Shown here one piece after another: positions 7,384 through 19,621 of a DNA stretch of 64,000 bases (positions are counted from its first letter, which is position 1; each line of letters starts with the position of its first letter). Location: contig WGLV01000039.1 of NCBI GenBank assembly GCA_016125385.1, positions 7,343 through 71,342 of the forward strand. The letters run 5' to 3'. Source of the stretch: a bacterium (lineage in GTDB: Bacteria > Hinthialibacterota > Hinthialibacteria > Hinthialibacterales > Hinthialibacteraceae). A program made the translations under genes and the position numbers. Under the pieces are notes generated by a model. It saw only the letters and a list, made by a program, of their open reading frames with translations. It had not been told where the DNA came from and did not search any database.

Positions 7384-9762
7384 ATGAAGGGAATGTGGAA
7401 CGCCGTGACTCGCCTTTTGCTCGCCGCGCTGGCGCTTTTTTCGTTTTCGCTCGCTGGAACCGCTCAGGATCAACCGGCCGCTGAACCAGCCGCGCCTCCC
7501 GAACCGCCCATCGAGGTCATGAAAGGCCGCCCCGAATACGTGGTCGGCTCCAATGTGGTCATGGTGTACCGCGACGCTGGCAAGCAGGCGACTCTCGCCC
7601 AGGGCGAGACCGCCGTCACCGCCGATGAAATCGAATATAACGCCGATTCGCGCATCTTTAACGCGACCGGCGACGTCAAACTGTGGGACAAGGGGCTTAT
7701 CCTGCGCGGTGAAACCCTGCGTTATGACCTGAACGACCAGACCGGCGAGATCCATGACGTTCATGAAGCCGAACTCGACGAAGGATTCTTCTTTCAGGGC
7801 GAGCGGCTCGAGTTTCACCCACGCGCGGCGGGAAGGCTCGAATCGGCCAGCGGTGAAGCCACCGTCCGCGAATATACGTTGTATAACGGGTACGTCACCG
7901 GAAACGATCTGCCTTATCCCTATTACAAAATGAAATTCGACCGGCTGGTGGTCGCGCCCAAGGTCCGATACTGGGTGTACGACATGATTCTGGTCACGCA
8001 ATCGTGGCCGTTGATGTATTTGCCGTTTTATTCGCAATCGCTTCAGGAAAACAAAGTCGCCTACTATCTCTACGCCGCGTCGTATTCTCAACTGGGATTC
8101 GCCATTTTCAACAAGTTGAACATCGTTCCCAGCGATGAATACATGATCGACCTCTACGGCGATTACTACACCAAGGCGGGTATCGGCAAGGGCGCCAAGT
8201 TTACCTTTGACGTCGAAGGCGACTACGGCCCGCAGGGCCAACTGTACGGCTATCACATCAAGCAGGAAGCGCCGGATAACGACCGCATCTTCGACGGAGA
8301 CGACCGGTATCATTTCGCGCTCGAATACGCTCAGGATCTGCCCTATGACATGCGCTTGACGGTGAAGGGCCACAAACTGTCCGATTCAGAATACCGCGAC
8401 GATTACCGCAACCCCGAACGAGTGCGCGGCATCGATACGCGCGATTCAGAAAACGAGTTGACCTCCTTCGTTAACCTGACCAAGCGCTTCGACGATCAGA
8501 GCGCGCGTATCACACTGGGAACCCGGCTCGACGATTTTTACTCTAACGGCTTGCCTTACGTTGAACGGAAACCGCAGGTTCACCTCGAACAATACCCCTA
8601 CAACATTCTGAATTCAGGCCTGTACGGCAGCCTGCAACTCGATTACGGCCGCTACAACCGCGAACAGGGTATCACCTTCCCCCTTGATGAATACACCCTG
8701 TTTCAACAGACGCAGTTCGCCGACGAGTTCACCCGTTACGACGCCAACGCCAAACTTTCATATCCGTTTTATTTTCCCTATCAGATTACGCTCGAACCCT
8801 GGCTGGGTTATCGTGCGACGCAGTATGACGACGCCGTCCATCTCGCCGACGATCCCGCCGCGCCCGGCTACCAGTTGACGCCGTTTGATTTCGGCTCCGA
8901 GTCGCGCATGATGGCCCAGGCGGGCATGGACCTTTCCACCAAGCGATCGTGGGAGTTCGATCCATTTCTCGACCGCTTTCAGCGCATGCGTTTTCAGATC
9001 GAACCGATGTTGCAGTACAGCTACTTTTTACCCGACACCGATCTGGAAGAGTTGAAGGCGTCGAACGGCGGGCGTTTTCCGTACGTCGACCCCACGGATA
9101 TGTATCGCGCCGAGATGCACAACGTGTCGGCTCTGCTACGCACCAAGGTGCAGGGCAAAGACGCATACGGCTCCACGTGGGACTTCCTGCGGTTCACCAC
9201 CGGGCTGGCGTATGAGGCGTTTCCCGATGACAACCTGATATATGACAACTTTCTTTATTACGACGATTTCGCGAACAGCAAAAACCACCGTTTCACAGAC
9301 TGGATGGAAGAATTCTCCATCTTCCCGTTCCCCTGGTGGTCGATCGGCAACACGATCCGGTACGACATTGATGACGGCGAACTGCGTTCCAGTTATACCT
9401 TCACCCAGTTTGAAGTCATGCAGCGCGCCCGTTTCACGCTCGGGTATTACACCTTCCGCTACCCGTTCCTCGATCTGAGCGAACAGCAGGACGTCGCACT
9501 GGTCATTAATTGGGATATCGATCCCAAGTGGGGGCTGTTTTATGAGATGCGCTACGATATCGATGACGAGCGCTTCCGCAGAAACGTGATCGGCCTGATC
9601 CGCAATATGTATGACTTTTACGCCACGCTTGAATTCGAGCACGAAAATCACCCAACGCTGGGCGACGACTATGCGATCCATATCGGTATTCAGCTGGTGG
9701 GGCCGGGCCGCAAACGGCCTGACCGCCCCGTGGTGGGCGTCCCCAGCCTGTTTGCTTACTGA
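7384..9762 (+). CDS. LptD/OstA-like outer-membrane LPS-assembly protein: N-terminal OstA/LptA-like beta-jellyroll plus a large C-terminal beta-barrel.
   Basis: It has a signal peptide (MKGMWNAVTRLLLAALALFSFSLAGTAQ). It has the OstA-N pattern (ADEIEYNADSRIFNATGDVKLWDKGLILRGETLRYDLNDQTGE). The C-terminal ~600 aa is aromatic-rich with alternating beta-strand character and ends ...PSLFAY (a C-terminal aromatic, an OMP signature). The track ORF starts at a TTG at 7369; the first ATG is 7384. Confidence 0.7.
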   Translation: MKGMWNAVTRLLLAALALFSFSLAGTAQDQPAAEPAAPPEPPIEVMKGRPEYVVGSNVVMVYRDAGKQATLAQGETAVTADEIEYNADSRIFNATGDVKLWDKGLILRGETLRYDLNDQTGEIHDVHEAELDEGFFFQGERLEFHPRAAGRLESASGEATVREYTLYNGYVTGNDLPYPYYKMKFDRLVVAPKVRYWVYDMILVTQSWPLMYLPFYSQSLQENKVAYYLYAASYSQLGFAIFNKLNIVPSDEYMIDLYGDYYTKAGIGKGAKFTFDVEGDYGPQGQLYGYHIKQEAPDNDRIFDGDDRYHFALEYAQDLPYDMRLTVKGHKLSDSEYRDDYRNPERVRGIDTRDSENELTSFVNLTKRFDDQSARITLGTRLDDFYSNGLPYVERKPQVHLEQYPYNILNSGLYGSLQLDYGRYNREQGITFPLDEYTLFQQTQFADEFTRYDANAKLSYPFYFPYQITLEPWLGYRATQYDDAVHLADDPAAPGYQLTPFDFGSESRMMAQAGMDLSTKRSWEFDPFLDRFQRMRFQIEPMLQYSYFLPDTDLEELKASNGGRFPYVDPTDMYRAEMHNVSALLRTKVQGKDAYGSTWDFLRFTTGLAYEAFPDDNLIYDNFLYYDDFANSKNHRFTDWMEEFSIFPFPWWSIGNTIRYDIDDGELRSSYTFTQFEVMQRARFTLGYYTFRYPFLDLSEQQDVALVINWDIDPKWGLFYEMRYDIDDERFRRNVIGLIRNMYDFYATLEFEHENHPTLGDDYAIHIGIQLVGPGRKRPDRPVVGVPSLFAY

Positions 9763-9781
9763 TTCGCAATCCAACGGAAAC

Positions 9782-9817
9782 AAAAAAAGCGGGAGCAATC
9801 GTTGCTCCCGCTTTTTG
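9782..9817. terminator. Bidirectional rho-independent terminator between convergent lptD-like and Gfo genes.
   Basis: caaaaaaAGCGGGAGCAAtcgTTGCTCCCGCTttttt: an 11-bp perfect stem with a 3-nt loop, flanked by an A-run and a T-run. Confidence 0.6.
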
Positions 9818-9840
9818 GTTTTGATGGTTTCCGTCTCGAA

Positions 9841-10986
9841 TCAGACAACCGTGCGCATGTCTCGAATCGCCACCGGCGCGCCGTTTTTCTCCGCCGATTC
9901 ATACGTGCGGGTCGAGGCTTCAACCCCCTGTGCGCCCGAAGTCAGGTCGGCGGGGTTTTCTTCATCGCAGATGAGGTGTTTGAGAAATTTGTCCCACTGA
10001 TAGCGGAACGCGTTCTCCGGCGTGTCGGGCGCCTCAATCAGCTCCCAACCGTCATCGAACTCGATTCGGCTGGCGGTGTCCGGGTCCCAGGCGATCTTGG
10101 GAGTGCGCTCGTTGGTGATGAAGTAGCACCGGTCGAGATACGCTTCCGCCGCGCCCTTCGTACCCTGAACCTTGATCTCAAGCAATCCGCGTTTGCGCGG
10201 CCGGCGGCACCATGACGACGCCGAGTCGCAGATCGCGCCCTGTTCGCAGACGAAGCGCGCGTATACCGAATCCTCCGCCGTGGTCGGAACCGGCTGACCG
10301 CCGCGCGTGCGCTGTTTGATATGCAGACCGGTCAACGCGGAGACCTCAACCGGTCGCCCCACGATCGATTCAAGTACGTAATCCCAGTGGGCGACCATGT
10401 CGTAGACGATGCCGCCGCCTTCGGCCTTGTCGGAGTTCCAGTCGGGCCGCGTTCCATCATCGGGATGAACCAGATACCCGAATTCGAGCAGTACGTGATA
10501 GACCTCGCCGATCATTCCTGAATGGATGACGTGTTGCAACGCTTTCAGGCCGGGTAGATAGCGTTTGTCTTGAACCACGCCGCCCTTCACGCCCTGGGCG
10601 TTGGCTTTTTTCGCGAGATCGATGGCTTCTTCCACCGTGAGGGTGATCGGCTTTTCGGAAAAGATATTCATTCCCGCGTCGATGGCCTGGCTGATGCCGG
10701 CGTAATGCACCTTGGTGATCGCGCCTTCGAAATACACGCGGAACGGGCTTTTGTCTTCAAACGCCGCGCTGAGGTCGGTGCCGCAGGGCAGCCCGTATTC
10801 ATCAGCGAGGGGTTTGAGTTTGGCCATATCACGGCCGATCAGAAACGGCTTGGGCATAATCACGTCGCCCCTGGCGGTTTTCAGCCCGCCTTCCTTGATG
10901 AAGTGCATCAGCGAGCGGTCCAGATGCTGGCGGCGCGCCATGCGTCCGGTGACGCCGCGCATATAGATGGGAACTTCGATAATCAT
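9841..10986 (-). CDS. Gfo/Idh/MocA-family NAD(P)-dependent oxidoreductase (cytoplasmic; divergent N-terminal Rossmann motif).
   Basis: The central and C-terminal regions show GISQAIDAGMNIFSEKPI (the EKP motif) and a typical Gfo C-terminal alpha/beta dimerisation domain. The ATG at 10986 has an AAAGGA RBS. The track's upstream extension to 11040 would overlap the cupin gene by 37 nt. Confidence 0.8.
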   Translation of the reverse strand: MIIEVPIYMRGVTGRMARRQHLDRSLMHFIKEGGLKTARGDVIMPKPFLIGRDMAKLKPLADEYGLPCGTDLSAAFEDKSPFRVYFEGAITKVHYAGISQAIDAGMNIFSEKPITLTVEEAIDLAKKANAQGVKGGVVQDKRYLPGLKALQHVIHSGMIGEVYHVLLEFGYLVHPDDGTRPDWNSDKAEGGGIVYDMVAHWDYVLESIVGRPVEVSALTGLHIKQRTRGGQPVPTTAEDSVYARFVCEQGAICDSASSWCRRPRKRGLLEIKVQGTKGAAEAYLDRCYFITNERTPKIAWDPDTASRIEFDDGWELIEAPDTPENAFRYQWDKFLKHLICDEENPADLTSGAQGVEASTRTYESAEKNGAPVAIRDMRTVV

Positions 10987-11003
10987 GATGCGTCCTTTCG
11001 TGA

Positions 11004-11471
11004 TTACGCCGAGGGGCTGTTTTTGGTGCTTTCCGGGCATTGCCGGTACGCATCACCGGGCAGCGGAGGCGTTGTGACGCCCGCTTTGGGCAATGTTCCA
11101 TCGAGTTCCTGACGCCAGTGATCGACGTCGCCGTCGCCTTCATAGATGTACAGAAACACGGCCTTTTCGGGCCCGCGGTTAGTCAGCTGGTGAAACTTGC
11201 CGGATGGAATATGCACCGCCTGGCCCTTGCGCAGCCGAACCGTGCCTTCGTCTTCCATCGCCAGCTCGATATCGTCGCCCTCAAGCATGACGTAGACTTC
11301 ATTCTGTTCGTGGTTATGCCACGGAACCTGCCCGCCGTTCGCGTCCAGTTCGATCCAACCGGTGCGGAAACCGACGTTCTCAAACAGGCCGGGGCCGGTG
11401 AATCCGCGACCCAGCCGGTTGGCGGGGAAGCGCTTGCCGGGCATGTCGCGCACGTCCAACACGTGAATCAT
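11004..11471 (-). CDS. Cupin-domain protein (RmlC-like cupin).
   Basis: VPWHNHEQNEVYVMLEGDDIELAMED...GQAVHIPSGKFHQLTN contains the two-His cupin motifs G(X)5HXH...G(X)5PXG...H. A strong AAGGAG RBS precedes the ATG. Confidence 0.8.
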   Translation of the reverse strand: MIHVLDVRDMPGKRFPANRLGRGFTGPGLFENVGFRTGWIELDANGGQVPWHNHEQNEVYVMLEGDDIELAMEDEGTVRLRKGQAVHIPSGKFHQLTNRGPEKAVFLYIYEGDGDVDHWRQELDGTLPKAGVTTPPLPGDAYRQCPESTKNSPSA

Positions 11472-11565
11472 GATGCCGTCTCCTTCGTGGAGTTTGGAAG
11501 TTCCGTGTATCGTATCAATTATGACGCGCGGGATAAACGGCGGCGGGGATTATAAAACGGATGGA

Positions 11566-11763
11566 TTACATCTCCATCAATTTTTTATATTCATTGGCTG
11601 CCTGGATGAGCGTCTGATTTGGAGATGATTTTGATAACAAAGCCCGAACCAGTTTTTCCTGGCCGCTTTTGGATAATTGAATCAGTGATTGGCGTTGTAC
11701 TGATCGCTGGGCGGATTTCAGAACGTGGCGAATCACAAATTCTGACATTGATTCACCATTCAA
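11566..11763 (-). CDS. DUF1778/TacA-like ribbon-helix-helix antitoxin homolog with an atypical or decayed start.
   Basis: The ORF plus its in-frame upstream extension reads ...EIRTPINSAQYRTKKVIQQAAQ(L)NGESMSEFVIRHVLKSAQRSVQRQSLIQLSKSGQEKLVRALLSKSSPNQTLIQAANEYKKL. This aligns over its full length with TacA/DUF1778 antitoxins (RLSLRVSTDAKKLIVRAAAIQQTNLTDFVV...PNEKLLAA). The conserved N-terminal beta-strand region lies upstream of the first canonical start (the TTG at 11763). No ATG/GTG/TTG precedes it back to the in-frame stop at ~11866. Confidence 0.45.
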   Translation of the reverse strand: MNGESMSEFVIRHVLKSAQRSVQRQSLIQLSKSGQEKLVRALLSKSSPNQTLIQAANEYKKLMEM

Positions 11764-11836
11764 TTGCGCCGCTTGTTGAATAACCTTTTTTGTTCTGTAC
11801 TGAGCCGAATTGATAGGCGTTCTGATTTCATCATAT

Positions 11837-13711
11837 TTACTCCCTTTTTTCGCGATCGCAGGGGATCACCAGCGTGATGCGGGCTCCGCCTTCGGGCCGG
11901 TTGGCTGCTTCGATGCGGCCGCCATGAAATTCCTCAACGATCGATCTCACCCACGCCAGCCCCAGTCCACCGCCGCTGGAACCCTCTTTGGTGGTATAAC
12001 CCGACTGGAAGATGCGGTTGATGGCTTCCTGCGGTAGCAGCTCGCCGCCAGCGTCGCGGATGCCGGGGCCGTTATCCAGCACGGAGAGGGAAACCATGCC
12101 GTCCGAACCGGCGTCGACGCGCATCTCGATCGCTCCGGCGCCGCCCCCCCGCTGAATCGCCTGCGACGAATTGGCCAGCAGGTTAAACAGCGCCATGCGC
12201 AACAATCGGGGTTCGACCTCGGCGGGCGCGGCTTGCGGCGCGTTGACGTTCAATTCGAACTCGCGCGAGGTCGAAAGGCGAAACAGATGCGCGAGATCGT
12301 TGGTCAGCGCGGCGAGATCGGTCTCTTCATAACGCGGCCGCCGCGCATAACCGAACGAGCGGTAAATGTTGACCATCTCCTGAAGAAAGTAGAGGTTGTT
12401 GCGCAGCCCTTCGACGGCCTCTTCGAAAAAGCGTCCGCGTTCGCCGTCGAGCTGGATGATGTTAAGCGCCTGGGCGCGCTGAATGGTGTCGAGATCCCAC
12501 TTGCCGGTGGCGATGATGTTGGTCAGGTCATGCCCCATGTTGGTGGCGAGGTTGATGCCGAACCGGTTGCGCTCTTCGGTCAGCGCCTGGCTGCGGGTGA
12601 AGGCGCGCGACAGGCCGGTCTCGCACTGTTTCTGAATCTCATCGGCCATCTGACGCCATTCCGTTTCGGGAAACGCGAGCGGTTGGCTCGAACGGCAGCG
12701 CAGACATCCCGCGATCTTGCCGCCCGCTCGCAGCGAGATCACCGCATGTCCGCGGTCCACCCACTCGATCGAGCCGTCCGCCGCAGGCGCCGGAGGCGCA
12801 TCCAACGCATCTCCGTGTTGGGCGATTCGCTGTAACGCGCTGGAACTCGAAGTCCACTCAAACGCCTCCACCCGATCGAAGGGGTAAATCGACGCCACCG
12901 ACGCCGGCGCCATGCGTAAAAAACGTTCCAATACCACCATGTCGTCAGGCAGGTCGTGCAACTGACCCGCCAGGCGTTCGACTTCCAGCCCGAAATACAC
13001 TTCTCGTTGAATACGCGCCAGCCGGTTGAATGCCTGTTCGATATCGTGCTGTGGAGCGTCAATCAGGCTGACGGCGCCGGGCTCGACCATTCGTTCGATG
13101 GCGCCGCCCACTCGTTGCAGGGGAAACATGACGTTACGGTACAGCCACAGATAGACCAGCGCGGTCGAGATCATGAACAACGCCGCGTAGACCCAATAGC
13201 GAAAGACCATGCTTTCGATCGAGGGCCAGCCCTTCGGCGTCGCGTAATAAAGCGTCGCTTTGCGGTTAATCGACGACATCGGCGCTTCAAACGAGCGGGA
13301 AAACAGGCAATTGGATGCGTCGTTGTATTCGCGTTTTTTACCGGGATTGTTGTATTCGGCGACGACGTGCTGGTTCGAGTCTTCCAGTACGATGCGAAAC
13401 CACGGATGATCGCCCGCCAGAATCTCTTCGGCGTGTTTGTCGAGGTATTCTTTGGCCTTCTGGAGATATTCGGTTTCGTTAGGGGTGGAGTTCAGCAGTT
13501 TGTCGAGCTGGTTCTGCAAGGGAGCGATTTTATCGACCAGTTCGAGAAAGGGCGCTTTGGAGTCGATGATCAGCGCGCGCTTTTTGTTGGCGAACAGCGT
13601 GTCGAGCATGGCGAGAAACAATAGGTTGATCAGCGCCAGCGCGATCAGGGGAACCACGCGCAGATAAAAGACGCGCGATGACTTTCGTCCTTCGCCATGA
13701 GGCTGTTGCAT
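11837..13711 (-). CDS. Membrane sensor histidine kinase: two TM helices flanking a periplasmic sensor domain, a cytoplasmic GAF/PAS-like region, then HisKA and HATPase_c.
   Basis: The H-box is INLATNMGHDLTNII. The N-box is LFNLLANSSQA. The G1 and G2 boxes are VLDNGPGI and GGGLGLAWV. TM helices are near the N-terminus and ~residue 180. The ATG at 13711 has a GGGAG RBS; the track start at 13735 is a GTG. No receiver domain or response regulator is adjacent. Confidence 0.85.
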   Translation of the reverse strand: MQQPHGEGRKSSRVFYLRVVPLIALALINLLFLAMLDTLFANKKRALIIDSKAPFLELVDKIAPLQNQLDKLLNSTPNETEYLQKAKEYLDKHAEEILAGDHPWFRIVLEDSNQHVVAEYNNPGKKREYNDASNCLFSRSFEAPMSSINRKATLYYATPKGWPSIESMVFRYWVYAALFMISTALVYLWLYRNVMFPLQRVGGAIERMVEPGAVSLIDAPQHDIEQAFNRLARIQREVYFGLEVERLAGQLHDLPDDMVVLERFLRMAPASVASIYPFDRVEAFEWTSSSSALQRIAQHGDALDAPPAPAADGSIEWVDRGHAVISLRAGGKIAGCLRCRSSQPLAFPETEWRQMADEIQKQCETGLSRAFTRSQALTEERNRFGINLATNMGHDLTNIIATGKWDLDTIQRAQALNIIQLDGERGRFFEEAVEGLRNNLYFLQEMVNIYRSFGYARRPRYEETDLAALTNDLAHLFRLSTSREFELNVNAPQAAPAEVEPRLLRMALFNLLANSSQAIQRGGGAGAIEMRVDAGSDGMVSLSVLDNGPGIRDAGGELLPQEAINRIFQSGYTTKEGSSGGGLGLAWVRSIVEEFHGGRIEAANRPEGGARITLVIPCDREKRE

Positions 13712-13738
13712 GCTGCCGCTCCCAACCGCCTCCACCGC

Positions 13739-14857
13739 TCAGGCGGCTTCTTCGGCGGAACTCGCCTCGGGCTCTTCGATGACCAGTTCTTCGTCTTCGC
13801 CCGTGGTTTTTGGAAAGACGGAGTGCAGGCGCATGCAGGTGTGAAAGAACATGGCGCCGCCTCCGATCAGGTACAGATGATAGGTGAAAAACCGCCACAT
13901 CAGGATGACCACCGCCACCAGGTGAGGCGGGATCAGTTTGCTCAACACGATGGATGATAACACTTCAATTCCGCCGCCGCCGCCCGGCAAGACGATGAAC
14001 AGCGACAGCATGAATAACGTCCCCTGCAGCAGGAAGAGAAATAAAGGATGATGGGAAACCGACATCGAAATCAATATCATCGGCAATACGCCGTACCGGC
14101 AACACCATTGGACGCTGGCGAAGATGAAATCGAGCAGCACGGCTCCTTTGCTGACCAGATAGATCTGAGCCACTCCCTGCTTCATCTTGATCAGTTCACG
14201 GATCAGGCGCCATTCGATCCAGCGCAGCCTGGCCGGCATGCGCCGAACGCGCATCCACTCGATTTTCGCCATCCAGCGGATCAGGCGGATCATGCGGCCT
14301 GAGCGTACCAGCCAGATCAGGATCCCCGCACCCGCCGCGATAAACGCCAGTGCGATGCCAAAGCGGGTGGCGTCGAAGGTAAAGGCGTCGTGCATCACCG
14401 GCGACTTCATCAGTGAATACAGCGTCAATGGAAGCAGCAAACTGAAAAACACCACATCCACCGCCACGTCGATCGCCATCATTGAGACGCCGTGCGCGAC
14501 GGGCACGCCCGCCTTTTTCAACAGCGACAGGCGGATCACCGCGCCGCCAACGCCCGCGGGCGTCGCCGCGATGCCGAACTCGGTTGAAAGTGAAACCGAC
14601 AGGCTCTGAAAATACGTCAGCGGATACCCCAGCGCGCGCGATAAAACGTAGATGCGCCCGCCGTTGCACAACCAGGCTGTGAACACCATCGGAAACAACA
14701 GCGCGACGTATTCCCAACGCAAGCGGCTCAGGTCGTCGAATGTGTCGCTTTTTTGTGTGAAAAAAAAGACGAGCGTGGTGGCCAGAACGCCCAGGGTGAC
14801 GCCCTGAAGCGCGTAGCGAAAAAGTTTTTTACCGGTTAACTCGGCTTTGTTTGTCAT
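13739..14857 (-). CDS. Flippase-like integral membrane protein (UPF0104 / lysyl-phosphatidylglycerol-synthase transmembrane-domain family).
   Basis: It has ~8 TM helices, a GGGGGIEV glycine-rich motif and an acidic C-terminal tail. The family commonly partners with glycosyltransferases in glycolipid pathways. Its ATG overlaps the stop of the upstream DUF2334 gene (ATGA overlap). Confidence 0.75.
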   Translation of the reverse strand: MTNKAELTGKKLFRYALQGVTLGVLATTLVFFFTQKSDTFDDLSRLRWEYVALLFPMVFTAWLCNGGRIYVLSRALGYPLTYFQSLSVSLSTEFGIAATPAGVGGAVIRLSLLKKAGVPVAHGVSMMAIDVAVDVVFFSLLLPLTLYSLMKSPVMHDAFTFDATRFGIALAFIAAGAGILIWLVRSGRMIRLIRWMAKIEWMRVRRMPARLRWIEWRLIRELIKMKQGVAQIYLVSKGAVLLDFIFASVQWCCRYGVLPMILISMSVSHHPLFLFLLQGTLFMLSLFIVLPGGGGGIEVLSSIVLSKLIPPHLVAVVILMWRFFTYHLYLIGGGAMFFHTCMRLHSVFPKTTGEDEELVIEEPEASSAEEAA

Positions 14858-15651
14858 GATTGAGTGTGAGAGGGGGCCTCGGTGGCCGTGCCGCGGGCGC
14901 TCGCGCCGAACCGGTCGGCCAGTTCGCTGTACGTGATGGGGTCGCGGGTTTCAACCAGACGCTTCACCATCTCCGCCAGCATGCGGCGGACCGATGGATA
15001 TTGTAGATCGGCTGGATGCACCGCCAAGCGCTGAACCCGATTCTCACGATTCCACGCGCTCCACCCACGTATCCAAACGGTTGAGAGCGTGCGCCGCAAC
15101 GTGGTGTGGCAACTGAGAGTGACCGCCGGGGCCGATTCGTCATGGTCAGGCCGTAAAAACGTGATCCCGTCCCAGCGGGTGAAATAATCGAAGCCGCTAT
15201 CGATCACCGCGCGGCGCGCCTCGCGGCTCAGCAGCCACGCGGGCGGCACAAAGCCCCGGTAGGGCAGGCCGAGCCGATCGAACAGATCCTTCCCGGCGTC
15301 CAGTTTTTCACGGGCCTGGGCATAGCCGAGCTGATAAAACTCGCCCTCGCGCCGGGTATAAACGTTGCCCATCAGTTGTTGGATGGGGCCGCCGAAGACC
15401 CGATCGACGATATGGATATACCCATGCAATACGATCTCGTGCCCCTGCGCGGTGCATTCATGCAGCCAGGTAACGAATCGGGGGTGTTCGTCGATGGTGG
15501 TTCCATCATGCCATTTGGGCACGGCGAGCAGCGACAGCCGGGGTGCGCCCGCTTCGCGCATATCGGCGATGAACGCGCGGCAGGCCTCCCATGAATGCGG
15601 CGCCAGATCGTGAAATGAAACCACCAGACAGGGGCGTCCAGACGCGTTCAT
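14854..15651 (-). CDS. DUF2334-family polysaccharide/aminosugar deacetylase-like protein.
   Basis: An N-terminal LVVSFHDLAPHS motif and H...HGY(I)H, characteristic of DUF2334 (a divergent deacetylase of the CE4/glycoside hydrolase-deacetylase superfamily). It is translationally coupled at both ends (ATGA overlaps). Confidence 0.75.
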   Translation of the reverse strand: MNASGRPCLVVSFHDLAPHSWEACRAFIADMREAGAPRLSLLAVPKWHDGTTIDEHPRFVTWLHECTAQGHEIVLHGYIHIVDRVFGGPIQQLMGNVYTRREGEFYQLGYAQAREKLDAGKDLFDRLGLPYRGFVPPAWLLSREARRAVIDSGFDYFTRWDGITFLRPDHDESAPAVTLSCHTTLRRTLSTVWIRGWSAWNRENRVQRLAVHPADLQYPSVRRMLAEMVKRLVETRDPITYSELADRFGASARGTATEAPSHTQS

Positions 15652-16295
15652 TCGATCTCCCGCACCACGGTCGAAACATATACGGTTTCATTGTGGAAGG
15701 GCTCGAATTTGGTGATTTTGCGGCGGTCGTAGGTTTGAAATCCGTACTTGTTGAAGACGCGCTCGGTGCGGCGGTCGTCGGTGGTTTGCATCTGTCCGTA
15801 TACCCGTTTGACGCCTTTTTGTTTGAGTACTTTAACGTACGCCGCCAGCAGGCGGGCGCCGACGCCGCCCGCGCGGTAGTCGGGCAGCAGGTTGAAATGC
15901 ATGTGGGCGCAACGCTTCGGCGCCGAGGGCGTCTCCCGGCCGGCGTTGAAGAGGCACCATGCGAGAAACTTGCGGCTGTTGGCGTCGTAACGGCCCGTGA
16001 GCAACCGCCACAAGCCTCTGGGGATGACCGACGCCGCCATGATCCATGTCTGAACCCATTGATGGCGCCGCCAGTAGGCGCACCCCAACAGATATCCGAT
16101 CACGCGGCCCTCGTCTTCCGCCACGAAGATGTGTTCGGGCTCCCAATCGGTGTAATACCGGGTGAGATAATCGGCGAACAATTCGCGATCTGAAAACAGC
16201 GGATCGACGGGTGAACCTGAAAACCCCGTTTCGCAGCAGATATGACGAATTGATTCGCGATCCTCAGACTTGTAGGGTCTGATTACGACTTTCAT
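15648..16295 (-). CDS. GNAT-family N-acyltransferase.
   Basis: MKVVIRPYKSEDRESIRHI... is a typical GNAT N-terminus. The acetyl-CoA-binding motif A region is RAGGVGARLLAAYV. The track start (a GTG at 16340) would overlap the GT4 gene by 77 nt. The internal ATG at ~16295 gives a 32-nt overlap. Confidence 0.75.
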   Translation of the reverse strand: MKVVIRPYKSEDRESIRHICCETGFSGSPVDPLFSDRELFADYLTRYYTDWEPEHIFVAEDEGRVIGYLLGCAYWRRHQWVQTWIMAASVIPRGLWRLLTGRYDANSRKFLAWCLFNAGRETPSAPKRCAHMHFNLLPDYRAGGVGARLLAAYVKVLKQKGVKRVYGQMQTTDDRRTERVFNKYGFQTYDRRKITKFEPFHNETVYVSTVVREIE

Positions 16296-17514
16296 CTCGG
16301 CTTTCTGAAGCGCCTTCATTGCGCTGGAATGAAAATTCACTGGCTGAGCGGCCCGCCAGCAGGTGGCGATAGAGCCGCGCCAGCCGTTCCATGGTCAGTT
16401 CGATCGAAAAGTTTTCCACGATGCGCAGCCGCCGCTCTTCCGGCGTCTGGCCGCGTTTGATCGCGCGGATGCGGCGTACGGCGCCGGCGAGGTCGCCGGG
16501 CTCGTCCGTCTCCGAAACGATCGGCGGTTCTTCGCCCTGTACGGTTTCTTCCATGCCCCCGCCTTTGACCAGCGCCACTCGGGTGCCGCAGGCCTGCGCT
16601 TCCAGTGAGGTCAGGCCGAAGGTCTCCCACTTGCCGGCGTGGACGAACAGATCGGCGGCTGAGTAATACGCGGTGAGCTGATCGGCGTCGTTACAATAGC
16701 GGAACCAGGTCAGGTCGTCGCGGACCTCCAACTGGCGTTCAACCAGTTTTCTCAATTCGCCGTCGCCCACCAGAAGCAGGTGGCATCGTCCCGGTCCGCC
16801 CGGATCGCGTTTCAGTTCTTCCAGCATGCGCAGCAGGTTGCGGATGCTTTTTTCGCGCGCCAGCCTGCCAACGAACAGCAGCAGCATATCATCGTCTTCC
16901 AGACCGATCGCCTGGCGGATGCGCTCTCCATTCGGGTTGGGTCTGAATACGGTGATGTCGGTGCCGAGGGGGATGTTCACGGTATTATTGAGGCCGCATT
17001 CGATCAGAATGGTCCGCAGGCGCTGGCTCGCCACTACGGTGGCGCTCATCTGGTTGTAGAGCCCGGTGATGTAGCGGTTGATCGGAGCGGAGAGCAGCGT
17101 CTCAATCGATTCGCCGCAAAAACGGCGGATGGTGCGGCCCAGCGCGCGGGGAAAGTCGGAATGATAAAACGCCACCACCGGCGCGTTCAGGCGGCGGCCC
17201 GCTTCCAGCGCGATCCACGCCGAGCGGTAGGGGTCGCCCACTTCGATCAGGTCGGGGCGCTCTTCATCCATGATTTCAAGGATGCGGTTTCGATTGAGCA
17301 GCATGCGGTAACTGATCGAGCCCACCAGCCGCAATGATTTGACGTGATATACTTTTGATTTGAAGCGGTATTCGATGGCGTTCTGGTCGGATGGAATGAT
17401 GATGACGTGTTCGATATCGGGTTGTTCGGCGAAATAGCGCGACTTGTCATGCACGTACCGCCGTACGCCTCCGCCTAACGGGCTGTAAAACTGAACGACG
17501 TCACAAATCTTCAT
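16264..17514 (-). CDS. GT4-family retaining glycosyltransferase (MshA/BshA-like fold).
   Basis: The N-terminal domain starts ...VQFYSPLGGGVRRYV. The C-terminal domain carries the EX7E-like GT4 region (FVHAGKWETFGLTSLEAQACGTRV). An AGAGGA RBS precedes the ATG at 17514. Confidence 0.85.
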   Translation of the reverse strand: MKICDVVQFYSPLGGGVRRYVHDKSRYFAEQPDIEHVIIIPSDQNAIEYRFKSKVYHVKSLRLVGSISYRMLLNRNRILEIMDEERPDLIEVGDPYRSAWIALEAGRRLNAPVVAFYHSDFPRALGRTIRRFCGESIETLLSAPINRYITGLYNQMSATVVASQRLRTILIECGLNNTVNIPLGTDITVFRPNPNGERIRQAIGLEDDDMLLLFVGRLAREKSIRNLLRMLEELKRDPGGPGRCHLLLVGDGELRKLVERQLEVRDDLTWFRYCNDADQLTAYYSAADLFVHAGKWETFGLTSLEAQACGTRVALVKGGGMEETVQGEEPPIVSETDEPGDLAGAVRRIRAIKRGQTPEERRLRIVENFSIELTMERLARLYRHLLAGRSASEFSFQRNEGASESRDESRNQTLQV

Positions 17515-17654
17515 TCGTCCTCTTTCCCGGCAGCCCGGCGCTGGCCTGACCCGCCTCCGGGCTCCGCCGCGATCAAGGCCGCGACGAAAATACCCATACT
17601 GTACAATTATTGAGAATACGTTAAAATTACCGGATTATTTTAGTACAAAATTCA

Positions 17655-17725
17655 AAAAAATCCTGATGATTTTCCGATAATGGTATACTGAGTTCATCAA
17701 TTCTGAAAAGGTATACATGGAAAGG
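17655..17725 (+). promoter_or_regulatory. Extended -10 promoter (TGgTATACT) for the TPR gene, with two GGTATAC boxes 28 bp apart (a candidate GntR-type operator).
   Basis: aatGGTATACtga at ~17681-17690 and aaaGGTATACatg at ~17709-17718. GTATAC is a perfect palindrome of the GT-N-AC type recognised by GntR/HutC regulators. A GntR gene lies convergently downstream. Confidence 0.3.
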
Positions 17726-17730
17726 CCGGT

Positions 17731-18624
17731 ATGAAAACGATTTTCTTCCGTCAACTGATTTTGCCTCTGATCGCCGTCACGATCGTATCCCTCGCGGGAA
17801 CCCCCGCATTCAGCAAAGACGCCGCCGCGGCCACGATGCCCATCGACGCCGCGTTTGAAAAAGCCAAAGACCTGTTTCTGAACGAAAAATTCAAGGAAGC
17901 CGAAGAGACCTTCAGGCGTTGTCTTGAGGCTCAGCCGAAAAACGCGGAGATCATGAGCTGGCTCGCCCAGTCGATCGCCTTTGTGCTGGGCGAACAGGCC
18001 AAGCAGGGCGCTTCACGCCTTTCACTTCTGCCCCTCGGGCAGGACGTCCGCTCGCTCTACTCACGCGCTATGGAGATCGACCCCAACAGCGAGCGCGCCC
18101 GAATCGGGTATGCCTTGATATTGCGCGACCTGCCGGGAATTCTGGGCGGAGACGTGGACAAAGCCGAGGCGATCCTGACTAAAGTGCTTGAACAGGACCC
18201 CGAAAACATCCTCGCCTGTCATCATCTCGGCAATCTGTATATCCGCAAAAAAGACGAAGTGCAGAAGGGGCTTCACTTTTTGAAGCGGGCGCTTGAAGTG
18301 GCCGAAAACAAGGAACTCACCCGGGAAGACAAATTTTATCTGGGTGGAACCTGGCACGCGATCGGAAAAACCTACCTCGAAAATCTTGAAGAACCCGAGA
18401 CGGCTCTGCCGTATCTGAAAAAATCGGTCGAAATGGACCCCAACGACGCCAACCCGTTTCTTGACTTGGCTGAAGCTTACCGGCAGACCGGTCAGGAAGA
18501 TCTGGCGCGCCAGACGCTGCGCGATTGCATCAAGTTCTGCAAAGACCGCAAGTACAAATTTTTCTACAGCGACGTCAAAAAACTGGCGCGCAAACTCGGC
18601 ATCGAAGACGAAGCGAAATTCTGA
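17731..18624 (+). CDS. Secreted TPR-repeat protein.
   Basis: It has a signal peptide (MKTIFFRQLILPLIAVTIVSLAGTPAFS) and multiple 34-residue TPR-like repeats (AEETFRRCLEAQPKNAEIMSWLAQS; AEAILTKVLEQDPENILACHHLGNLY; ALPYLKKSVEMDPNDANPFLDLAEAY). Confidence 0.8.
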   Translation: MKTIFFRQLILPLIAVTIVSLAGTPAFSKDAAAATMPIDAAFEKAKDLFLNEKFKEAEETFRRCLEAQPKNAEIMSWLAQSIAFVLGEQAKQGASRLSLLPLGQDVRSLYSRAMEIDPNSERARIGYALILRDLPGILGGDVDKAEAILTKVLEQDPENILACHHLGNLYIRKKDEVQKGLHFLKRALEVAENKELTREDKFYLGGTWHAIGKTYLENLEEPETALPYLKKSVEMDPNDANPFLDLAEAYRQTGQEDLARQTLRDCIKFCKDRKYKFFYSDVKKLARKLGIEDEAKF

Positions 18625-18634
18625 AAAAGTGAAA

Positions 18635-19375
18635 TTAATGAACGCCGCGCATGGTTTCCATCGTGATGCGATGGTCGCGCGAGGCGTTGATGATCCGCAT
18701 GAAGCACACCACCCGGTTGTTCGACGTATAAAAAATCCGGTCCATCAATAACGCCGATTCGTCTCGCGGGCGCTGCAATAACTCCGCCTCGCGGTCGTCC
18801 AGAGTCGTGACTTCAAACGAATCCGCCGTGCGGATGATGGGGACTCCATTCTTCTTGGTGATGATGTCGAGGATTGAGTTGCCCCGCAGGTCTTCGAGGG
18901 GTACGCCGGGGCATAGGTCGTGCGACACGTAGGCGGTCTCCAGCGTCACAGGCGTTCCTTCAATAAAACGCCGCCGCAACACTTTAAACACCTGGTGTCC
19001 GGTTTCGTGATTGAACAGCTCCGTCAGATCCGACGGAGAGATGGTGAGCATCTTCTGGACGACTTCGGTCTCCCAGGGGACGCCGAAATCGAGGATGCTT
19101 TCGGTGATATGGGTCGAGAGCCACACACCCGCGTTGGACGGAGGTTTTTCGACGAAGGTTCCCTTGCCGGGAATCTTGCGGATATACCCCTTCCGCGCCA
19201 GGTCTTGCATGGCGGAGCGAACGACGGCTTTGCTGACGGCCTGTTGAGTACAGAGCTGATCTTCCGTGGGCAGTTGCGCGCCTACCGCAAGTTCCCCGCT
19301 TTCAATTGCCTGCAATAAAATGTCAACCAGCTGTAAGTAAAGCTTGCGTGGATTATCACGGTCAACTTGTTTCAT
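18635..19375 (-). CDS. GntR-family transcriptional regulator, HutC/UTRA subfamily.
   Basis: An N-terminal winged HTH (PRKLYLQLVDILLQAIESGELAVGAQLPTEDQLCTQQAVSKAVVRSAMQDLARKGYIRKIPGKGTFV) is followed by a UTRA effector-binding domain. Confidence 0.85.
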   Translation of the reverse strand: MKQVDRDNPRKLYLQLVDILLQAIESGELAVGAQLPTEDQLCTQQAVSKAVVRSAMQDLARKGYIRKIPGKGTFVEKPPSNAGVWLSTHITESILDFGVPWETEVVQKMLTISPSDLTELFNHETGHQVFKVLRRRFIEGTPVTLETAYVSHDLCPGVPLEDLRGNSILDIITKKNGVPIIRTADSFEVTTLDDREAELLQRPRDESALLMDRIFYTSNNRVVCFMRIINASRDHRITMETMRGVH

Positions 19376-19621
19376 AATATTATGATCGATGCGCCTTCAT
19401 GTCCCTGTAAAGGGACGCCGTCATACCTTGGACTATTTTGTACGATTACTTTTGCGATCGAAAGGCGGCTGATGCTATCCCGATCGTTTTTTCTTTAGTA
19501 TGATGCTCATTGGGCGTGAGGGAAATTCGCCTTTAGACATCGGGTTTCACCTCCGCCCGGCGCTTGATTAAAAACGCATACGCAACGAAATCATACAGAA
19601 GGATGTGGGAGGATTCACGAA

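Follow-up and report, generated by a model that had tools for sequence, protein, structure and literature searches.

In a 64-kb window of contig WGLV01000039.1 (the window being the whole stretch of DNA analyzed, with all coordinates counted from its first letter), four minus-strand genes at 17514-13739 probably make up one functional unit, a cassette for membrane-lipid modification, to which a sensor histidine kinase (13711-11837) was added in this lineage. The four genes encode, in the order of transcription, a family 4 glycosyltransferase (GT4), a GNAT acetyltransferase, a DUF2334 deacetylase, and a flippase-like membrane protein. The reading favored here, held with somewhat better than even confidence, is that a lipid carrying N-acetylglucosamine (GlcNAc) is made and deacetylated, that the GNAT re-N-acylates the amine, and that the lipid is then flipped. 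What is new is the GNAT between synthase and deacetylase, while the logic of glycosyltransferase, deacetylase, and flippase is already known.

Composition of the cassette

An earlier note on this DNA had described eight tightly packed genes at 9841-17514 as one operon. The open reading frames of this stretch were all found on the minus strand at the positions given there, and every domain assignment was confirmed by Pfam. An independent gene call on an identical public contig (Logan, 17.9 kb, 100% identity, 0 mismatches) returned the same genes, with lengths of 416 aa for the GT4, 223 aa for the GNAT, 265 aa for the DUF2334 protein, 372 aa for the LPG_synthase_TM protein, 624 aa for the histidine kinase (start 13711), 155 aa for a cupin, and 381 aa for a Gfo/Idh/MocA oxidoreductase (start 10986). 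At the first junction of the cassette, the 3' end of the GT4 gene and the 5' end of the GNAT gene share 32 nt. The ATGA-type start/stop overlaps described earlier are both present, at 15648-15651 between GNAT and DUF2334 and at 14854-14857 between DUF2334 and the flippase-like gene.

The closest characterized system is gpgSDF of Pseudomonas aeruginosa (PA4311-PA4313), which encodes the synthase, the deacetylase, and the putative flippase of glucosaminyl phosphatidylglycerol (GlcN-PG; Khan, Palmer, Guan 2025, PMC12713373). Transposon mutants, gpgD complementation, and expression in E. coli assigned the formation of GlcNAc-PG to GpgS and of GlcN-PG to GpgD, and GpgF is the presumed flippase (PMC12713373). 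The NCBIfam models NF053787, NF053788, and NF053789 derive from these genes, and the relation of the core proteins of the window to GpgS, GpgD, and GpgF of P. aeruginosa rests on scores against such profiles.

The GT4 (16264-17514, minus strand, 416 aa; Pfam Glycos_transf_1 and Glyco_transf_4) is GpgS-like and a predicted lipid N-acetylglucosaminyl transferase. It matched NF053787 (GlcN_PG_synth, the GlcNAc-PG synthase model) with 274.4 bits (E 1.2e-81), residues 1-386 being aligned to model positions 1-360 of 361. The runner-up among NCBIfam models was MshA (TIGR03449) with 74 bits (cut-off 462), and the BshA model TIGR03999 reached 59 bits (cut-off 274), both matches covering the C-terminal domain only. 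Weak similarity to GT4 models of exopolysaccharide (EPS) and lipopolysaccharide (LPS) synthesis was also found, and the solved structures recovered were generic GT4 structures only, with BshA, PimB', and MshA among the nearest. The GpgD-like deacetylase (14854-15651, minus strand, 265 aa; Pfam DUF2334, PF10096) had NF053788 (GlcNAc_PG_deac) as its sole NCBIfam match, with 196.4 bits (E 4.8e-58). The Pfam scan gave no PIG-L match for it, and no solved structure related to it by sequence was found. The putative lipid flippase (13739-14857, minus strand, 372 aa) is a GpgF-like membrane protein of the UPF0104/LPG_synthase_TM family with multiple hydrophobic segments, of which residues 22-333 are covered by PF03706. 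Its best NCBIfam match was NF053789 (GlcN_PG_flip) with 137 bits (E 9e-40), and it passed the general flippase-like model TIGR00374 with 99 bits (cut-off 43).

These matches bear out the earlier expectation of a membrane-anchored amino-sugar lipid and not a soluble thiol, the best-matching models being those of a GlcNAc-PG synthase, a GlcNAc-PG deacetylase, and a GlcN-PG flippase. The analogy to mycothiol and bacillithiol synthesis drawn in the same place is loose, as the deacetylase belongs to DUF2334/COG3233 and not to the LmbE type, and the GT4 is far closer to the GpgS model than to MshA or BshA. That the cassette makes a soluble low-molecular-weight glycoside of this kind, or decorates a polysaccharide or LPS instead of a membrane phospholipid, is very improbable. 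The weak MshA, BshA, and EPS/LPS scores of the GT4 and its nearest solved structures would agree with such a product. They are outweighed by the GpgS model, which scored 3-4 times higher than any other GT4 model and covered the whole protein, by a deacetylase that matched the GpgD model only, and by a dedicated UPF0104 lipid-flippase-like gene that is translationally coupled to the others; a PADLOC scan also returned no defence system. The scan covered all seven proteins and was made for a defence-system reading, which was rejected, and the weak Pfam "GT4-conflict" match of the GT4 therefore reflects generic GT4 similarity only.

Family and active site of the acetyltransferase

The GNAT gene (15648-16295, minus strand; Pfam Acetyltransf_1) encodes 215 aa from the ATG at 16295, which is the start favored by the alignment of homologues over the 223 aa of the gene call; alternative in-frame starts occur at 16319 and 16340. 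Searched against the PDB with phmmer, the protein matched 4BMH (SsAT of Streptomyces sviceus, E 9.9e-17), 3ZJ0 (OgpAT of Oceanicola granulosus, E 2e-5), and 6R45 (the Trichoplax O-GlcNAcase's pseudo-histone-acetyltransferase domain, pHAT, E 9.2e-5), and with the family profile 4BMH reached E 4.3e-21. The same three entries were the top Foldseek matches of the AlphaFold2 model (pLDDT 93.4), with TM-scores of 0.65-0.70. Helices 75-99 and 105-121 of the model lie between strands 64-72 and 130-136 (beta3-beta4), and the alpha1-alpha2 loop is lengthened (13 residues at 24-36). In crystals of SsAT and OgpAT, the acceptor site is turned into a closed tunnel by a two-helix insertion of ~50 residues and the longer loop (PMC3814719, PMC3919268). 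As modeled, the GNAT of the window shows both features, the hallmark of the SsAT/OgpAT/O-GlcNAcase-pHAT-like subfamily.

The canonical R-x-x-G-x-G P-loop is kept as R141-A-G-G144-V-G146. The H131-M-H133-F-N135 strand is also present, and H133, the proposed catalytic base, aligns with His135 of OgpAT and His187 of SsAT and is invariant in the GNAT alignment (A1). The same invariance across the aligned sequences holds for many acidic and aromatic residues in the insertion regions, and the invariant motifs of the subfamily are CCETGF-G-P-D--F-DR--FADY-T-YYTD-EPE, H-H-N, and YGQ. With P-loop and proposed catalytic histidine retained, the protein looks like an active enzyme. SsAT and OgpAT bind acetyl-CoA with micromolar affinity (PMC3814719, PMC3919268), whereas the pHAT domains of eukaryotic O-GlcNAcases cannot bind acetyl-CoA and have a function that "remains elusive" (PMC12494797).

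The likeness to this group thus consists of the sequence matches, the best structural matches, and a common H-x-H-x-D/N strand. It extends to the genomic setting, as OgpAT also adjoins a GlcNAc-processing enzyme (GH84) and the window GNAT adjoins GlcNAc-handling genes. The partners differ, however, being a GlcNAc transferase and a deacetylase in the window instead of a glycosidase, and the identity of the window GNAT to SsAT, OgpAT, and the pHAT domain is only 18-25%.

Conserved gene order and fusions

A search of 1.84 billion representative proteins with the GNAT profile gave 1070 matches at E <= 1e-10, and in the GTDB data with one genome per species at least 577 stretches, mostly of bacteria of the Planctomycetes-Verrucomicrobia-Chlamydiae (PVC) group, encode a relative of the GNAT. 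The best 80 loci were examined by mapping the proteins of the window onto them, and all denominators below are evaluable loci. Most of these loci belong to PVC-group lineages, namely Omnitrophota-like metagenome-assembled genomes (MAGs), Opitutales, Victivallales, Kiritimatiellia, Chthoniobacterales, and other Verrucomicrobiota, and a few come from Proteobacteria. Candidatus Hinthialibacter antarcticus is the nearest named relative by the proteins of the window.

In 65 of 78 loci the gene immediately upstream of the GNAT is a GT4, and in 48 of 75 the one immediately downstream is DUF2334; the flippase-like gene comes next after DUF2334 in 33 of 71. The complete series GT4-GNAT-DUF2334-flippase was found in 29 of 69 loci, and its order on one strand is kept in Omnitrophota-like MAGs, Opitutales, Victivallales, Kiritimatiellia, and some Proteobacteria. 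The overlap at the GT4/GNAT junction is shared by the window and nine relatives. Six GNAT-linked GT4s, from five lineages and one GT4-GNAT fusion, scored 253-303 bits against NF053787 and form one coherent GT4 clade. The four genes also occur in the complete genome of a cultured member of the Opitutaceae, Congregicoccus parvus (AP028972.1, 178714-189532, locus L089), with 47% identity to the window in the GNAT and 46% in the DUF2334 protein. Of the unit proposed earlier, gene neighborhood supports the co-conservation of GNAT and DUF2334 with the GT4, so that the refuting conditions set for that proposal were decided in its favor; the cupin and Gfo genes are never conserved with it, and the kinase is so in the closest clade only.

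Gene fusions connect the same proteins. Among the profile matches is a 474-aa fusion of a GNAT (10-217) with a GpgD-like deacetylase (236-469), whose gene directly follows a GT4. Its 90% cluster counts 185 members, many of exactly 474 aa, on contigs from JGI, ENA, and NCBI. A 639-aa GT4-GNAT fusion, with DUF2334 as the next gene, was found on a single contig. The recurrence of such fusions ties the GNAT functionally to synthase and deacetylase. More distant relatives of the GNAT carry a C-terminal GT2 (TIGR04283-like) with a GT4 upstream (P0227, P0234, P0241, P0263; L084 3277-4671), and these members keep a tyrosine aligned with Tyr234 of SsAT.

Loci of the same kind occur without a GNAT. Direct overlap of the GT4 and DUF2334 genes was seen in two betaproteobacterial-type loci, and the one pair that was scored, with 421.6 bits to the GpgS model and 221 bits to the GpgD model, is closer to the true GpgS and GpgD. 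Another GNAT-less lineage has the order GT4b-GT4-DUF2334-FGE-like-flippase. Since such loci exist, the GNAT is an add-on that marks one branch of a broader GpgS/GpgD-like module.

Several further genes were seen in the vicinity of these loci. Loci with a solitary GNAT (L018, L059, and similar) have few recurring neighbors, none of them consistent enough to count as a conserved partner; glycerate kinase, a hexapeptide transferase, a class III aminotransferase, and a Pat-like acetyl-CoA ligase-GNAT were found there. The hexapeptide-repeat transferase of ~210 aa (50-53% identity between lineages) is encoded downstream of the solitary GNATs of L047, L059, and L060 and, in the locus with the GNAT-deacetylase fusion (L081, 3460-4092), two genes before the GT4 on its upstream side. 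In L018 and L028 the gene after the GNAT is that of the class III aminotransferase. A protein of ~800 aa, whose N-terminal half (~450 aa) is unassigned and whose C-terminal part is a GT4 domain, adjoins GpgS/GpgD-like genes in several lineages (L081 7382-9805, L088 1328-3844, also L025, L045, and L051) and is absent from the window. Its presence points to a second sugar being added to the head group in some relatives.

Proposed pathway and its alternatives

In the pathway proposed here, the cytoplasmic GT4 would move GlcNAc, presumably from UDP-GlcNAc, to phosphatidylglycerol or a closely related glycerolipid at the inner face of the cytoplasmic membrane, and the cytoplasmic GpgD-like DUF2334 enzyme would strip the N-acetyl group to leave a free amine. 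The GNAT, with an occluded acceptor tunnel of the SsAT/OgpAT type, would then acylate this amine from acyl-CoA at the cytoplasmic face, either exchanging the acetyl for a different acyl group or re-acetylating the sugar and so setting the ratio of glucosamine (GlcN) to GlcNAc. Lastly, the UPF0104 protein would flip the finished lipid to the outer leaflet. GlcNAc transfer, deacetylation, and the flippase-like protein are predicted from homology to the genetically characterized gpgSDF, and the acylation step is suggested by gene order, translational coupling, co-conservation, and the GNAT-deacetylase fusions. GNAT enzymes need acyl-CoA. No transmembrane segment or signal peptide was found in the GT4, the GNAT, or the DUF2334 protein, which fits cytoplasmic acyl-CoA chemistry. 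The product of the GNAT may be a new N-acyl-GlcN phospholipid, or its activity may control the ratio of zwitterionic GlcN-PG to anionic GlcNAc-PG.

Several observations weigh against this pathway. Those on the core enzymes concern their scores, as the GT4, although its best NCBIfam match led by a wide margin, fell below the curated cut-off of NF053787 (480 bits), and the DUF2334 and flippase-like proteins fell below those of NF053788 (280 bits) and NF053789 (320 bits). All three being under the equivalog cut-offs, they are a sister group and not orthologues of GpgS, GpgD, and GpgF. At 274/480, 196/280, and 137/320, the scores leave room for a lipid acceptor, and even a sugar, other than that of gpgSDF. 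Judged by their homology, the three proteins would nevertheless work like gpgSDF, with phosphatidylglycerol as the probable acceptor and GlcNAc as the probable sugar.

Other such observations concern the gene order. Chthoniobacterales/Spartobacteria-type loci (L054-L080) carry the GT4-GNAT pair beside trxB with no adjacent DUF2334 or flippase-like gene. In a MAG of the Fimbriimonadaceae (Armatimonadota), a GT4 and a GNAT-GT2 fusion are followed by an unassigned 374-aa protein and an OmpR-type response regulator, and no DUF2334 gene lies nearby. The role of the GNAT may therefore not depend on deacetylation. A flippase or deacetylase that had been missed was looked for beside the Opitutales and Chthoniobacterales-type cassettes, and the neighbors were housekeeping genes. 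In Opitutales these were NadC, BirA, and an ABC transporter downstream of the cassette, and the Chthoniobacterales type has TrxB upstream of the GT4. The fusions, too, can be read in another way. Fusions of opposing enzyme activities are known in regulatory switches, so the GNAT-deacetylase fusion does not prove an exchange of acyl groups.

The remaining ones concern the active site. The general acid of SsAT, Tyr234, aligns with a phenylalanine in the window GNAT and in two aligned fusion proteins of the subfamily, and by eye most members of alignment A1 also carry Phe there. In most Verrucomicrobial GNATs the canonical P-loop is lost or degenerate. The family as a whole includes no member with a known biochemical activity or acceptor, and its assignment is thus structural and not functional.

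The main rival sees in the GNAT a partner without catalytic activity or with a regulatory role, a pHAT-like pseudo-acetyltransferase that binds the GlcNAc/GlcN head group or CoA and modulates the GT4 or the deacetylase, the product being plain GlcN-PG. GT4 and GNAT are the most conserved pair and are kept together even where deacetylase and flippase are not adjacent, and eukaryotic proteins related by this fold have been proven to be pseudo-enzymes that play allosteric roles (PMC3814719, PMC12494797). The phenylalanine in place of Tyr234 and the degenerate P-loops point the same way. In the Chthoniobacterales type, the P-loop is without any glycine (e.g., ARKMSTTRAL) while the H-x-H-x-N strand is kept, so that these proteins may represent a pseudo-enzyme state parallel to that of the eukaryotic pHAT domain. 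The rival fits such lineages and suits the clade of the window less well, where every GNAT, that of the window included, keeps the canonical P-loop. The invariance of the proposed general-base histidine and of many acidic and aromatic insertion residues in the aligned GNATs also stands against it, as does the binding of acetyl-CoA by the bacterial SsAT and OgpAT. For the window, a non-catalytic GNAT is accordingly regarded as unlikely, and re-N-acylation of the lipid-bound amine is preferred.

Comparison with known systems

The window and gpgSDF share the same three families in the same S-D-F order on one strand, and synthase and deacetylase are predicted to be cytoplasmic in both. In contrast to gpgSDF, for which no acetyltransferase is mentioned (PMC12713373), the order in the window is S-[GNAT]-D-F, the scores are ~40-70% of the curated cut-offs, and the flippase-like gene is followed by a sensor kinase. 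The host also differs, being an uncultured bacterium near Hinthialibacterota and the PVC group and not a proteobacterium, with a product predicted from genes.

A second system, hexSDF-hexRK of Clostridioides difficile, synthesizes an aminohexosyl-hexosyl-diradylglycerol, and the adjacent hexRK controls hexSDF (Pannullo et al. 2023, PMC10128005). HexS is annotated as a monogalactosyldiacylglycerol-synthase-type protein that acts on a glycolipid, and HexD as a polysaccharide deacetylase (PMC10128005). By the description in that paper, it resembles the proposed pathway in the transfer of an N-acetyl-hexosamine onto a membrane lipid, its deacetylation, and an MprF-like flippase, with signal-transduction genes adjoining the flippase gene; unlike the window, it has a complete pair of kinase and regulator and no GNAT. 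The earlier statement that no described pathway has this composition is accordingly out of date, as a described pathway exists for three of the four core genes with gpgSDF (PMC12713373), hexSDF/hexRK follows the same glycosyltransferase/deacetylase/flippase logic, and only the GNAT is extra. No description of the four-gene form with an SsAT/pHAT-like GNAT, of its spread in the PVC group, or of the deacetylase fusion was found in the searchable literature.

The order of reactions has analogues in other pathways. In Nod factor synthesis (NodC-NodB-NodA) and in lipid A synthesis (LpxA-LpxC-LpxD), assembly is followed by N-deacetylation and by N-acylation with a different acyl group. The chemical order proposed for the window would be the same, with GlcNAc introduced, the acetyl removed, and the amine re-acylated, but the families are unrelated (GT2, CE4, and NodA; LpxC and LpxD), the substrates are other ones, and no homology is claimed. 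With MprF, the lysyl- and alanyl-PG synthase-flippase, the flippase-like protein of the window has PF03706 in common, which covers the membrane domain of MprF, and the predicted effect, a lowered negative charge of phosphatidylglycerol, is the same. The head group in the window would, however, be added by a glycosyltransferase, and since PF03706 is the only domain in the flippase-like protein, a separate aminoacyl-PG synthase domain is lacking, unlike in MprF.

Sensor kinase and flanking genes

The membrane sensor histidine kinase (11837-13711, minus strand, 624 aa) begins 27 nt after the flippase-like gene and has two transmembrane segments (residues 19-37 and 172-190), a periplasmic loop of ~135 aa, and a HATPase_c domain. 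A kinase gene directly follows the flippase gene in the nearest relatives L001, L002, L005, L006, L008, L009, and L011 (tblastn, 47-59% identity), and by a stricter count in 6 of 64 loci, in the nearest clade only. With CheY, OmpR, NtrC, and NarL probes, tblastn detected no receiver domain in either the 64-kb window or the relatives that carry the kinase, while the same probes gave strong matches in other loci as a positive control. The kinase thus stands without a nearby response regulator in the window, as had been noted before; the role in envelope-stress sensing suggested for it found no support in the results. A convergent LytS/LytTR two-component pair follows the cassette in C. parvus, and together with the OmpR-type regulator of the Fimbriimonadaceae MAG it echoes hexRK.

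Between kinase and cupin lies a spacer (11472-11836, 365 nt) with a GC content of 0.436 compared to 0.597 for the cassette and flanking genes. It contains a frameshifted TacA-type antitoxin gene (11566-11834, minus strand), outside the system, in which two reading frames are joined by a 1-nt frameshift at an A6 run (11791-11786). The TacA-like remnant described earlier is real, as the repaired product of 89 aa matches PF08681 (TacA1) end to end with E 1.7e-21. This TacA-type (DUF1778) gene has no TacT-type toxin gene beside it. The gene could be what is left of a toxin-antitoxin insertion, or it could be intact and its homopolymer misread in sequencing. With 100% identity over 17.9 kb, the Logan contig offers no independent argument against such a misreading. 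From the end of the remnant (11566) to the start of the cupin gene (11471) there is a gap of 94 nt, at variance with the gaps of under 30 nt claimed before; a terminator-like hairpin (11578-11560) and the best sigma-70-like promoter match of the region (11576-11549, 10/12) were found at this site. The remnant marks the break between the cassette and the genes of the Cupin_2 protein (11004-11471, minus strand, 155 aa; Pfam) and the Gfo/Idh/MocA oxidoreductase (9841-10986, minus strand, 381 aa; Pfam), which are 17 nt apart and lie outside the conserved cassette. Past the Gfo gene, a hairpin with a perfect 15-bp stem and U/A tracts on both sides (9784-9816) separates the convergent Gfo (-) and LptD (+) genes and looks like a strong bidirectional intrinsic terminator.

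The eight genes had been proposed as one operon. In such a unit the kinase would be in control, and cupin and Gfo would also modify the sugar of the glycolipid. All eight are on one strand, the only strong terminator-like hairpin is the one after Gfo, and Gfo/Idh/MocA and cupin proteins frequently act on sugars. A homologue of the cupin or of Gfo was nevertheless seen close to the cassette in 0 of the 80 related loci, among them those of the nearest relatives, where other genes come after the kinase. The frameshifted TacA gene, the lower-GC spacer, the gap, the terminator-like hairpin, and the promoter-like site all separate the two groups. The eight-gene unit is hence highly improbable, and cupin and Gfo are unrelated neighbors in this genome only, which leaves the four-gene cassette and its lineage-specific kinase.

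Upstream of the GT4, a divergent intergenic region of 216 nt (17515-17730) has a GC content of 0.458 overall and of 0.312 at 17590-17730, in agreement with the AT-rich promoter region described earlier. It leads to a divergently transcribed gene for a TPR protein (17731-18624, plus strand; TPR Pfam families) with a hydrophobic, signal-peptide-like N-terminus as judged by eye. A transcription regulator of the GntR/HutC type (18635-19375, minus strand; Pfam GntR and UTRA, HutC-like NCBIfam matches) follows. The TPR gene is divergent from and adjacent to the GT4 gene in L001, L002, L004, L005, L007, L008, L010, L011, L014, and L056 (42-48% identity), and L001, L002, L005, L007, and L011 have copies of the HutC-type regulator (63-75% identity) no more than a few kb from the cassette. 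Both genes recur with the cassette in the nearest clade only, and the regulator is a candidate local regulator of the cassette.

Two copies of GTATACC lie in the intergenic region (17682-17688 and 17710-17716). The window holds 8 copies where 1.3 are expected, and 0 of 100 shuffles reached 8. A AGTATACCAT-like motif (17680-17689 and 17710-17716, minus strand) is also found upstream of the GT4 in L001, L002, L004, L005, L007, and L010, in the same orientation relative to the GT4 as in the window. It may serve as a promoter element of the -10 type or as an operator, which the HutC-type regulator might bind. An Rfam scan of 9500-19500 (E <= 0.1) found no riboswitch or other RNA family.

Biological significance

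Genes for the biosynthesis of GlcN-PG were not assigned until 2024-25, and in P. aeruginosa alone. A scheme with these three enzymes is widespread among little-studied and largely uncultured lineages, i.e., Hinthialibacterota- and Omnitrophota-like MAGs, Verrucomicrobiota, Lentisphaerota, and Kiritimatiellota, usually with a fourth, dedicated enzyme. Should the product prove to be a new N-acyl amino-phosphoglycolipid, this would be a further adaptation of membrane charge and barrier beside MprF and the modification of lipid A. The prediction is practical to test, as the cultured carrier C. parvus has the same four genes.

This fourth enzyme is a member of a small GNAT family, which also comprises the pHAT domain of human O-GlcNAcase and two crystallized bacterial proteins. 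Its coupling to the GT4 and its fusion to the deacetylase provide the first concrete and testable substrate candidate for the family, the amine of lipid-bound glucosamine. A broader and tentative suggestion, held to be possible rather than probable, is that action on lipid-linked glucosamine is the bacterial home function of the fold, which would in this cassette convert GlcN-PG to a so far unreported N-acyl-glucosaminyl phospholipid or act as an acetyl-CoA-dependent charge switch between GlcN-PG and GlcNAc-PG, widespread in the PVC group. If this is true, the pHAT domain of eukaryotic O-GlcNAcase would descend from an enzyme that recognized a hexosamine head group.

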